64,000 nucleotides of DNA from Candidatus Saccharimonadota bacterium (GTDB lineage Bacteria > Patescibacteriota > Saccharimonadia > Saccharimonadales > Saccharimonadaceae): the NCBI GenBank assembly GCA_030445265.1, contig JAUCSC010000001.1, forward strand, positions 482,494-546,493, given 5' to 3'. Every line of letters starts with the position of its first letter. Positions within the stretch are counted from its first letter, which is position 1. Below are positions 20,801 to 22,794 of this stretch, piece after piece. A model generated the notes under the pieces. That model was not told where the DNA came from and did not search any database. It saw only the letters and a program-made list of their open reading frames with translations. The position numbers and the translations under genes are program-made.

Positions 20801-21116
20801 TGACTATGAAAAAATCAAGCTGCACAAATATAGGCAGCAGCTCATGTTTTACAAATTGCTCCTGGAAGGTTCTCGTGATTACGGCACCTACGAAGTCAAG
20901 GGCGGCATATTAGAATTCGTTGAGCCGGATAAGACAGGGGAGGTGCGGTCTCTCATCCTCCAATACGACGACGATGAACTCGAACGCTACAAGCGGCTCA
21001 TTGGAGCCGTCTGGGAGCATATCGTCGTGCTCGACCTGCCAGATGTATCAGCATATGACCTGTCATACAAAGGCATTTTGGCTTTTGAAGAATACTTACT
21101 CGGCGAACAGGAGTAG
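17838..21116 (+). CDS. UvrD/PcrA-family helicase fused to a C-terminal PD-(D/E)xK nuclease (AddA/AdnB-like)
   Basis: AGPGTGKT, LVDEFQD, GDDDQAIFSFQGA, HKSKGLEY and YVAMTRAK; C-terminal GLLDLID..VSDYKTG. Confidence 0.9.
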   Translation: MEFEHRYTSLNAAQRQAVDTIEGPVMVIAGPGTGKTELLGMRVANILKKTDTLPENILCLTFTESGAVAMRDRLIGIIGQAAYKIPIHTFHSFGSEIINQNREHFYRGALFQPAEELSIYEIVRTIFDELEYSNPLATTSNGEYVHLRDTITVISELKKSGLTSDELLAVLDANDEVLEKADQIILPVLSDRIAKGSIDRLRGAPESLRKLTISLDKYAIVPLNHVIADSLQEAIETADALGKTSPLTAWKRDWLKLSSDKTLIFKARERQEKLRAASYIYYQYLVRMEEASLYDFDDMILQVVHAMEVKDDLRFNVQENYQYILVDEFQDTNLAQMRLITSLADNPVNEGRPNILVVGDDDQAIFSFQGADISNILTFQQAYPTRELIVLTENYRSTANILTASRNVIVQGEGRLENTIEGINKELHANTNTSGTVALREAASQSDERRWLAHAIKSSIEKGTKPTDIAVLARRHYELEQLLPYFADAGVNVSYERSDDVLELEPIRLLYQLATFIMRLAGGDHDGANGIISQVLAHPAWGFKPKELWQLSASAYDNRLRWLDAMATNPRFESLHAWFIELVALSTFSPLEHMLDRMIGYQDDELVHIQASSPLFQYFFSEEKLAEDPGSYIYFLEGLATLRNHLKEFRPKSLLTLATFIEYIELHLRLGSRIQITQSIAASDTAINLLTAHKSKGLEYDSVYIIGATDNMWGEKSRSRSRLISYPENLPIAPAGETRDERLRLFYVAMTRAKRHLTISYSRRSDLGKPLLKADFIAGMSIEPELITPGHTTEYLTHSAELAWYHRITTPSSDLKVMLAPMLASYKLSATHVNTFLDVTIGGPQAFLLQNLLHFPQSRSPQASYGLVVHKTLQQAHLHVIATGTEKPTEDVLRDFENNLREQRLSTLDFDTYLQKGVTELPIFLSKRSHTFTQSQRTELNFAGQHVMLGEARLTGLLDLIDVDKQTKTITVSDYKTGKPAKSWVGVSDYEKIKLHKYRQQLMFYKLLLEGSRDYGTYEVKGGILEFVEPDKTGEVRSLILQYDDDELERYKRLIGAVWEHIVVLDLPDVSAYDLSYKGILAFEEYLLGEQE

Positions 21117-21119
21117 TTA

Positions 21120-21148
21120 TTGACACTATCTCTATTAATTGCTATAAT
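21120..21148 (+). promoter_or_regulatory. Consensus sigma70 promoter
   Basis: TTGACA-17 nt-TATAAT with TG extension. Confidence 0.8.
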
Positions 21149-21154
21149 ATTATT

Positions 21155-21520
21155 GAATAGATTGAGAGCGTGAAGCAAGCGTACAAATACTTGCCCGTTT
21201 ACTTTACGCTCTCTCTGTTCGCACTTTGACAGAGATAGCAATACTTTCGGATGTTCGTTGAGATCTGGTGTCTTTCCCCCTTGCACCACAGATCTGCCCG
21301 CCAACTGATGTCCGAAACGGGCGGTGTTATTGGAGACGTTTGAGAGGCAACGGGTTGTCTTCTTTTACGTCCGCGTCTGGCTTCGTGCCCTACGTAAAGC
21401 AATAGCATCGCCTACCACCGGGTGGGTCGCTGAAAGGCTCCTTCGTGGAGCGCCTTCAGGCTTGGGGACGGGTATCCCCTTGTTCTTCTGAAGAAGTAGG
21501 CGGCCCACTCGGCCCACTCA
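21155..21520 (+). ncRNA. Long structured RNA / 5' leader (unassigned)
   Basis: Stems 21155-21220, 21245-21317 and 21364-21398; a 14-bp stem (21418-21431/21499-21512) closing a multibranch junction; no convincing + strand ORF. Confidence 0.5.
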
Positions 21521-21565
21521 CCATTCTGCAATTCCACAGCACGAGCACCCTAGGAGGTGATTCAT

Positions 21566-21718
21566 ATGCAGTGCAGTCAATGCAAGGGAAATGGCACTTG
21601 TCCTAACTGTGGTGGCCGAGGCTGCAGCAGTTGTGGCGTCAAGGACGGTCTCTCGGGAGTGTACCGAGGCAACAACGTCGGCAAGTGTCCCGCCTGCAAA
21701 GGCAGAGGCTCCGTATAG
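21566..21718 (+). CDS. 50-aa Cys-rich zinc-finger microprotein with DnaJ-type CxxCxGxG repeats (not in ORF track)
   Basis: [50 protein letters not shown]; perfect AGGAGGTGA SD. Confidence 0.8.
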
Positions 21719-21784
21719 GAGCACTGGATGGGCAATGTGACGCACACCAGTGCTCGCATCGTGGGACAAAATGCTATCTCTGTC

Positions 21785-21830
21785 CATCCCTCAGTCTTCA
21801 TAAATTATTATGGACAGTGAGGGATGTTTT
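21785..21830 (+). terminator. Long terminator-like hairpin
   Basis: CATCCCTCA...TGAGGGATG followed by TTTT. Confidence 0.55.
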
Positions 21831-21843
21831 ATGTGCAAACACT

Positions 21844-22794
21844 ATGAATAACTTTTGGCACGAACTACCAAAACCTTTTTTTATCCTGGCTCCAATGGAG
21901 GCAGTGACTGATGTTGTATTTCGCCATGTAATTAGCGAAGCGGCTCGACCAGATATCTTTTTCACTGAATTTACGAATGCCGCAAGCTACTGCAGCCCGC
22001 TCGGCCAGCAAAGTACCAGAGGACGACTGAGCTTTACGCCTGATGAACAGCCGATGGTTGCACAGATATGGGGGAGCGTGCCCGAACAATTTAAAATAAT
22101 GTCTCTAGGCTTAGCAGCCGCTGGCTTCAAGGGTATCGATATCAATATGGGATGCCCCGATAAATCAGTCGTCAAAGGCGGAGCAGGCAGTGGCCTTATC
22201 CGAAACCCTGAACTAGCCGCACGTCTCATCGCCGCAGCCAAGAAAGGCGGCCTGCCGGTCAGCGTCAAGACTCGACTGGGAGACACCAGAATCGATGAAT
22301 GGAAAGAATGGCTGACGCATATACTAGGGCAAGATATCGTCAATTTGACGATCCACCTTCGTACGCGCAAGGAGATGAGCAAAGTTGATGCCCACTACGA
22401 ACTGATCCGTGAAATTAAAGAATTGCGCGACGCGGTTGCACCTAAGACGTTACTAACCATTAATGGCGATATCAGAGACCGGGCACACGGTCTGGAACTT
22501 GTCGAGGAATATGGCGTCGATGGCATTATGATTGGCCGCGGTGTTTTCTCCAATCCCTTTGGATTTGAGATAGAGCAGCGGCAGCATAGCCGCGACGAGT
22601 TACTAGGACTCTTAAAGTTACACTTAAATCTTTTTGATAAATATAGCAACGAGCTCGAACCGCGAAAGTTCGAGCCCTTGAAGCGTTTCTTTAAGATTTA
22701 CATACGCGACTTTCCTGGCGCCAGTGAGCTCCGAGAACAACTCATGCACACGAAGTCGACCGATGCAGTGCGTGCCGTCCTTGCTACGATCTGA
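21844..22794 (+). CDS. dus: tRNA-dihydrouridine synthase
   Basis: [28 protein letters not shown] and MIGRG; start at ATG 21844. Confidence 0.92.

Follow-up and report, generated by a model that had tools for sequence, protein, structure and literature searches.

The 64,000-nt window analysed here (GenBank assembly GCA_030445265.1, contig JAUCSC010000001.1, forward-strand positions 482,494 to 546,493) comes from a Candidatus Saccharimonadota bacterium of the family Saccharimonadaceae. At positions 21120–21830 of the window, on the plus strand, an element lies between a gene for a UvrD/PDDEXK helicase-nuclease (1092 aa, stop codon ending at 21116) and the gene dus (ATG at 21844). The region is best explained as a single transcription unit of ~ 676 nt, the mRNA of a 50-aa cysteine-rich microprotein held inside a conserved, helix-clamped RNA frame. 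An earlier note on this DNA had described a self-contained unit running from promoter to terminator, and all elements it listed were recovered to within 1–2 bases. Absent from that description was a 13-bp long-range helix, here termed the clamp or P1 (Table 1). The entity that is conserved and covaries is the outer frame built around this helix, and not the pair of leader and protein.

Anatomy of the transcription unit

The unit opens with a sigma-70 promoter whose −35 box (21120–21125), TG extension (21140–21141) and −10 box (21143–21148) all agree with the consensus; a like promoter was found at a like position in 27 of 28 loci of the genus. Transcription is predicted to start near 21155. 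The frame itself consists of a 5′ hairpin, a GYACNUU junction, a clamp of 10–19 bp (13 bp here), a mini-hairpin at the Shine-Dalgarno sequence and a terminator hairpin abutting the clamp. The clamp pairs the region just 3′ of the 5′ hairpin with the region just 5′ of the terminator, and its 5′ strand overlaps or directly follows the motif GCACTTTGACAG at 21221–21232. In the minimum-energy fold of the full transcript, P1 forms and encloses leader and open reading frame (ORF) in one loop. The ribosome-binding site AGGAGG occupies 21552–21557, the ATG lies at 21566 and the stop codon at 21716–21718. What we here call the helix-clamped small-gene frame of Saccharimonadales is defined by a promoter of its own, the 5′ hairpin, the junction, the long-range helix around the cargo and the terminator hairpin next to that helix, and all five traits are present in the window.

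Table 1. Features of the transcription unit, in window coordinates
Feature	Position	Strand	Basis or description
Sigma-70 consensus promoter	21120–21148	+	12/12 matches, TTGACA-17-TATAAT with extended −10 TG
H1, 5′-terminal hairpin at or next to the predicted first base	21155–21220	+	Minimum-energy fold; 66 nt
J, junction GCACTTT (family consensus GYACNUU)	21221–21227	+	Alignment
P1, 5′ strand of the clamp helix	21228–21240	+	Exact reverse complement of 21772–21784
Ha, leader hairpin	21245–21317	+	C-rich apical loop with five consecutive C, ~ 21271–21281
Hb, Y-shaped leader domain	21319–21413	+	Predicted fold
Hc, Y-shaped leader domain	21418–21512	+	14-bp helix closes the branch point
Mini-hairpin CACC/GGUG, loop shows AGGA of the Shine-Dalgarno sequence	21546–21559	+	4-bp stem, fold
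Cargo ORF ‘ZnA’, 50 aa, four CxxC pairs (8 Cys)	21566–21718	+	
Hd, hairpin directly 3′ of the stop codon, GAGCACTGG/CCAGTGCTC	21719–21755	+	Fold
P1, 3′ strand of the clamp helix	21772–21784	+	Pairs with 21228–21240 in the fold
T, terminator hairpin (21785–21826) and U run (21827–21830)	21785–21830	+	Abuts P1 without spacer; covariance model R1

The plus strand from 21155 to 21565 folded with a free energy of −164.6 kcal/mol (z = −6.17, with none of 100 shuffled sequences folding equally well), which bears out the earlier claim of a structured RNA; this structure is strand specific, folding of the minus strand of the element being weak by comparison (z = −1.87). U–G pairs are frequent on the plus strand of the hairpins flanking the clamp. 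The many plus-strand U–G pairs and the strand-biased folding argue for pairing at the level of RNA rather than DNA.

Several details were noted at the downstream border of the unit. In this window dus has an in-frame ATG at 21832, preceded by GAGGGA, which could be its true start. Many relatives have an extended −10 sequence (TGAGATAAT) past the terminator, from which dus would be transcribed separately; in other relatives the 3′ arm of the terminator hairpin continues straight into the dus start codon.

Conservation and distribution of the frame

The clamp was present in the minimum-energy fold of all 28 genus transcripts. Comparison of ungapped helices from 60 loci yielded 47 distinct clamp 5′ strands, with 757 Watson–Crick pairs, 16 G–U pairs and not a single mismatch. 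The helices were 10–19 bp long and spanned 253–663 nt, and cognate partners paired over a mean of 13.4 bp as against 7.6 bp for non-cognate ones. Compensated variants include ...GAGAGAGTAC with GTACTCTCTC... and GACTGAG... with ...CTCAGTC. The neighbouring hairpins behaved similarly: H1 showed double changes that preserve pairing in 12 of 12 predicted pairs of a 27-genome alignment. Across 72 sequences of the terminator hairpin, 94.4% of cells were paired, compared with 75% after shuffling and 30–50% with slid partners (covariation score 0.665 vs 0.30, double changes in 13 of 15 pairs). The junction J and the start of the clamp are the best-conserved sequence of the frame, and J is kept in other families of the order too. 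The CACC...GGUG arrangement precedes unrelated ORFs in most loci, and the position of the post-stop hairpin is likewise filled in most of them, often with a GAGYGGAYG...GCAAAA signature. The outer frame thus defined covaries; for the 325-nt leader of the window no homologue was detected.

Two further candidate features of this region were rejected. One was a switch in which a local hairpin would compete with the clamp. It is not a general property: in the nascent 5′ module few bases of the clamp strand are paired (median 3.5 nt; median gain 0.3 kcal/mol), and the local hairpin dominates in only about four of 28 genomes. The TTGACA inside the junction was dismissed as an internal promoter, since no −10 box lies downstream of it in any locus.

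The frame occurred once per genome in all 28 genus genomes examined. Of 40 genus genomes, 14 contain a single exact match to the clamp-core motif (control pattern 0), in each case between the same helicase and dus genes, and the remaining genus genomes examined carried covarying versions at the same helicase–dus locus. Two covariance models were built, R1 for the 3′ module and R2 for the 5′ module; the window belongs to both training sets, so that its scores of 73 bits (R1) and 59 bits (R2) arise by construction. The 3′ module was present in ~ 45 of 83 metagenome loci collected via Dus. Beyond the genus, carriers within the order were the genomes G122, G086 (two loci), G068 and G157 (where the contig end cuts the unit), which places the frame in at least three, probably four, other families of Saccharimonadales. 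Units outside the genus have new, compensated clamp sequences and different neighbouring genes. Five of the seven weak R2 matches outside the genus were false and lay inside coding sequence, and no instance of the frame turned up among 144 genomes sampled from other orders of the phylum.

The carriers belong to Saccharibacteria, among them Candidatus Microsaccharimonas and strain TM7i, which is in culture. A scan of genome contigs for a 16-nt motif of the frame returned mostly chance matches; seven among the matches listed had the partner strand downstream, and the four of these that were checked were Saccharibacteria. The same scan of viral contigs gave 70 chance matches, none of them with the partner strand. 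Neither the Rfam families nor the papers that we found contain a description of the frame, which is apparently undescribed.

Exchangeable contents of the frame

Across the genus genomes, ~ 15 unrelated families of small ORFs (43–81 aa) were found inside the clamp, comprising several Cys-rich types (one of them a second CxxCGGxG family), zinc-ribbon-like proteins and Lys/Ala/Glu-rich helical proteins. In one genus genome (G061) and several metagenome loci the frame had no evident ORF, and the metagenome collection also contained units with two ORFs, tandem units and units holding tRNAs. In other families of the order the cargo includes small membrane proteins, such as a protein of 75 aa with two hydrophobic segments (G068) and one of ~ 130 aa (G086). 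Searches of Pfam and PHROGs with ten cargo proteins gave no significant family. The proportion of nonsynonymous differences (pN) was below that of synonymous differences (pS) in 22 of 22 within-family ORF pairs, and the cargo ORFs are therefore real genes under purifying selection.

The spread of cargo over the species tree is almost random. Well-supported sister species on the Dus tree carry unrelated cargo, and 19 changes of cargo label were counted on this tree, against 20.8 ± 0.9 for shuffled labels and a possible minimum of 14. Between sister alleles, the segment from just past the ribosome-binding site to the stop codon had been replaced, with retention of the 5′ hairpin, clamp, leader, ribosome-binding hairpin, post-stop hairpin and terminator hairpin. 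The breakpoints thus fall at the ORF borders and not in the clamp arms. Leader length varied from ~ 27 nt (locus L288) through ~ 56 nt (G031) to ~ 460 nt.

A hypervariable segment at a fixed chromosomal site, enclosed by two perfectly matching inverted repeats, would also be expected of a DNA-level element in which the repeats serve as recombination sites for an invertible switch or cassette exchange and the RNA helix is incidental. The repeats are identical to each other within a locus and differ between species, as gene conversion would also produce, and tandem units exist. We consider this explanation extremely unlikely, because the interior never changes direction with respect to promoter and flanks among the 60 loci compared, the breakpoints avoid the repeats, and the neighbours are a helicase-nuclease gene and dus, with no recombinase. 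The G–U pairs within the clamp, the many U–G pairs of the adjoining hairpins and the strong strand bias of folding also speak against it, as does the absence of the paired motif from the 70 viral contigs that have the motif alone. Integron gene cassettes similarly involve diverse, promoter-dependent small ORFs exchanged at a fixed site, with arrays occurring. Here, however, both an integrase and an attC-type site are missing, every unit comes with a promoter and a terminator of its own, and exchange is delimited by the ORF borders.

A number of unusual contents were recorded in individual loci. In several lineages the clamp encloses tRNA look-alikes (L049, 2185–2333 on the minus strand; L052; L221, ~ 960–1060; L196, 1026–1098), which have a D arm, a T arm and an acceptor stem, with a long insertion in the anticodon or variable region; one was called as tRNA-Asp with the unusual anticodon ATC, and one gave a sub-threshold match to transfer-messenger RNA (tmRNA). 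Ordinary-looking tRNA genes (Lys-UUU, Gly-CCC) occur in or next to clamp units upstream of dus (L216, 807–884; L208, 1029–1105), and the L216 unit seemingly contains a tRNA alone and no ORF. Tandem clamp units are located between helicase and dus in L288 (900–2140) and L243 (211–664), the former with a third Cys-rich small ORF that has its own terminator and no recognisable clamp. The loci L030 (from G061) and L026 (from G034) belong to close relatives and have a common leader, one followed by a 63-aa Cys-rich ORF and the other without an ORF there. In G034, most of the 5′ hairpin is deleted between two copies of a ACATTGACA repeat.

The 50-aa ORF of the window, with its eight cysteines, was confirmed as a real gene, as the earlier note had proposed: three small relatives (66%, 50% and 43% identity) were recovered from the same locus and pN was far below pS (0.23 and 0.74 in the comparison with the closest relative). 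An exhaustive HMMER search gave three matches, namely two small proteins, both encoded between the same helicase and dus genes, and one repeat protein of 509 aa; a further relative came from a metagenome locus. The genomic settings of these relatives differ. The closest (L286) is a plain gene with a short untranslated region, a simple terminator and no clamp, that of L288 is enclosed by a clamp behind the very short leader given above, as the second of two tandem units, and that of L221 is preceded by a tRNA look-alike.

The earlier CxxCxGxG description of this protein needs a correction. Three of its four CxxC pairs fit the pattern CxxCxGxG and the fourth does not. The spacing of successive CxxC pairs, counted by hand, is unlike that of DnaJ, and the match to the DnaJ cysteine-rich domain was not significant (DnaJ_CXXCXGXG, PF00684; E = 0.85, 10.4 bits against a cut-off of 32.7). 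Neither the window protein nor its relatives matched Anti-TRAP (PF15777), and the protein and its three relatives reached no Pfam threshold at all. A PDB profile search with the family found no relative, and a word-indexed protein search found no match. AlphaFold2 applied to the four-member alignment gave a predicted local distance difference test score of 53, too low for use. Language-model neighbours of the window protein were DnaJ/BSD2/Anti-TRAP-like clusters (0.85), to be taken as a lead. A second cargo family of the frame (G019, G002) gave weak matches to PF15777 and PF00684 (E = 0.002–0.014), reaching 18.1 bits for Anti-TRAP against a threshold of 32. Anti-TRAP, a free-standing protein of ~ 53 aa, and the DnaJ cysteine-rich domain share small zinc-type CxxCxGxG motifs with the window product but differ from it in motif spacing, and there is neither a J domain nor a TRAP system here. 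The product is hydrophilic, with no hydrophobic segment. The 509-aa protein (P0002), from an unrelated source, combines an N-terminal Cys/His-rich region with five tandem paired CxxCxGxG modules resembling the microprotein.

The leader of the window was examined against both related loci and known RNAs. A BLAST search of ~ 280 related loci with the 325-nt sequence returned no match, and the match of the window to R3, a covariance model of a recurrent leader hairpin, was not significant (5.5 bits). The leader is best explained as a lineage-specific, very stable insert inside the clamp and not as the partner of the protein. The hairpin described by R3 has a six-base AAYGRY loop closed by C–G and recurs in 13 genus and nine metagenome loci, often on a long stem whose base arms are GGAGG and CCUCC, ~ 40–70 nt upstream of the actual ribosome-binding site, and a role as an anti-anti-Shine-Dalgarno device is conceivable.

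The hallmarks of RNase P RNA and tmRNA were missing from the element, in agreement with the earlier note: ARAGORN found nothing there, and no Rfam family was matched at its gathering score or at E up to 10, apart from a chance 20-bit match to a small RNA on the opposite strand. Bacterial RNase P RNA (RF00010) was rejected on the same search, and five frame-carrying relatives have a normal copy elsewhere (~ 250 bits). tmRNA (RF00023) was rejected on the empty ARAGORN and Rfam results and on the strong Shine-Dalgarno sequence and ATG of the ORF; the leader of two relatives gave a sub-threshold tRNA-like match in this test (27.9 bits against a gathering score of 47). In the genome of the window (G000), a single contig of 645 kb, RF00010, RnpA (PF00825), a true tmRNA and an RMMBL/RNase J-like protein were not found. 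Both RNase P RNA and the RMMBL protein are present in relatives, and the lack of RNase P RNA, rnpA and tmRNA fits an assembly that is 77.5% complete, so G000 is probably a partial rather than a reduced genome.

These results bear on the view taken in the earlier note, that a ~ 400-nt RNA and a zinc-finger microprotein form a dedicated pair, acting as a ribonucleoprotein or as a metal- or redox-sensing cis-regulatory leader. RNA and protein are co-transcribed, Cys4 proteins often bind nucleic acids, and the leader is exceptionally stable. However, frame and protein occur apart: relatives of the protein are found without this leader and even without a clamp (L288, L286, L221), and the frame hosts unrelated proteins, tRNAs or no ORF. 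A conserved ligand pocket cannot be argued for a leader that lacks homologues, and Rfam gave no riboswitch match. We regard a dedicated pair as very unlikely.

A different role for the folded leader would be that of a dual-function RNA of the RNAIII type, the transcript encoding the microprotein and the leader acting in trans through C-rich loops on G-rich ribosome-binding sites. Over the 28 transcripts, CCC was located in 36 hairpin loops and GGG in six, and C runs of at least four were unpaired in 41 of 84 cases compared with 4 of 49 for G runs, although A and C are enriched in the loops of any folded RNA and the C-loop count is suggestive only. Ha of this window exposes a five-C loop, and the units of G061 and several metagenome loci that lack an evident ORF are consistent with a function of the RNA itself. 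Staphylococcus aureus RNAIII, SR1/SR1P and SgrS/SgrT offer the closest likeness, with RNAs of ~ 500–700 nt that contain a small ORF, conserved 5′ and 3′ parts joined by long-range pairing, a variable centre and C-rich loops. In contrast to these systems, the present leaders are not conserved (that of the window having no homologue at all), some units such as those of G031 and L288 are nearly devoid of one, and the ORF of one species gives way to an unrelated family in its sister. On balance, an RNAIII-type function appears unlikely.

Proposed function and significance

With moderate confidence, we favour the interpretation that the frame is a stabilising, translation-setting mRNA chassis for small genes; its anatomy is secure, whereas the function is what we infer from it. 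The frame would act after transcription, both RNA ends being buried in a compact junction. Ends tied in this way should prolong the life of the transcript in a cell equipped with RNase Y, RNase III and an RNase J-like enzyme. The mini-hairpin would half-sequester the Shine-Dalgarno sequence, such that the frame would set the translation of whichever ORF it encloses and could serve as a generic chassis. Genes for RNase III and RNase Y were found in the window genome and two relatives; searches for an RMMBL (RNase J-like) protein succeeded in both of these relatives but gave nothing in the window genome, which is incomplete.

Several considerations weigh against the chassis interpretation. Start site, transcript ends, RNA stability and translation are all predictions. 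The near-invariance of the clamp core across half of the genus is more suggestive of recognition by a sequence-specific factor, or of a processing enzyme, than of mere protection of the RNA ends. The rapid turnover of cargo is left unexplained by a role in stability, and the large leader of this window may have a function of its own that a chassis does not account for. Because junction and clamp core are near-invariant, readings based on processing, on a locked mRNA or on action in trans retain some weight.

One elaboration accommodates a reader of the junction. Here the frame would be a modular chassis whose junction is recognised by a factor (a protein or nuclease) and which governs interchangeable microproteins, tRNAs and folded RNAs, shuffled between lineages under diversifying or frequency-dependent selection, perhaps tied to epibiotic conflict with hosts or phages. 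We put this forward tentatively and hold it to be rather doubtful as a whole.

Alternatively, the clamp could keep the primary transcript inert, either as an mRNA locked in the manner of type I toxin mRNAs or as a processing precursor, with RNase III cleavage in the clamp, RNase P/Z cleavage at tRNA-like modules or 3′ trimming releasing or activating the contents. A long-distance interaction between 5′ and 3′ ends around a small ORF is a hallmark of the hok and aapA1 mRNAs. The present unit resembles hok/Sok of plasmid R1 and aapA1/IsoA1 of Helicobacter pylori in its ORF of ~ 50 codons, stable compact mRNA, 5′–3′ pairing with compensating changes (the 13-bp clamp, covarying over the 60 loci) and partly sequestered ribosome-binding site. 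Small membrane proteins are carried by the frame in other families (G068, G086), the clamp of several lineages surrounds tRNAs or tRNA look-alikes, RNase III is encoded in the window genome, and clamp and terminator stem adjoin with no spacer, so that the two could stack into one long duplex.

Against such a mechanism stands the cargo, which here and across most of the genus is hydrophilic and not toxin-like; the tests for type I toxin–antitoxin features found the long-distance pairing and no hydrophobic toxin. A consensus scan of 20900–22000, which a weak or non-consensus promoter could escape, found no minus-strand promoter for an antisense antitoxin. The ribosome-binding site is weakly sequestered by a 4-bp stem, and the clamp is shorter than classical RNase III substrates. 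Type I toxin mRNAs differ further in that the pairing here starts after a separate 5′ hairpin, the product is Cys-rich, and the frame hosts many unrelated ORFs and tRNAs. The stems of rRNA and tRNA precursors are comparable in that distant complementary flanks close around a functional RNA, and tRNAs are enclosed in some loci, but the clamp measures just 10–19 bp and its usual content is an mRNA. Inert-precursor and locked-mRNA mechanisms are thus improbable in our view. Among known designs, type I toxin mRNAs and RNAIII-type RNAs come closest. Within the reach of the tests, the unit departs from both in defining features: there is no toxin-like product, the consensus scan found no antisense promoter and there is no known target.

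Saccharibacteria are ultrasmall epibionts with few known regulators, and to our knowledge almost no RNA biology has been described for them. With regard to this locus, it is the outer clamp, rather than the 400-nt fold or the zinc-finger motif, that now claims attention. The two covariance models and the 12-nt signature can be used to find genes of this kind, and the structure–function hypothesis is testable in a cultivated carrier, strain TM7i being one that has the frame. The frame may also be a natural template for the expression of small genes in these organisms. A conserved RNA architecture with a strong promoter, maintained through dozens of compensated helix variants and host to rapidly exchanged microprotein genes and tRNAs, points to an unrecognised layer of post-transcriptional control, and also to a set of quickly replaced small proteins that escape standard annotation. 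The frame itself would rank as categorically new should both a dedicated reader and exchange in the manner of cassettes be confirmed.

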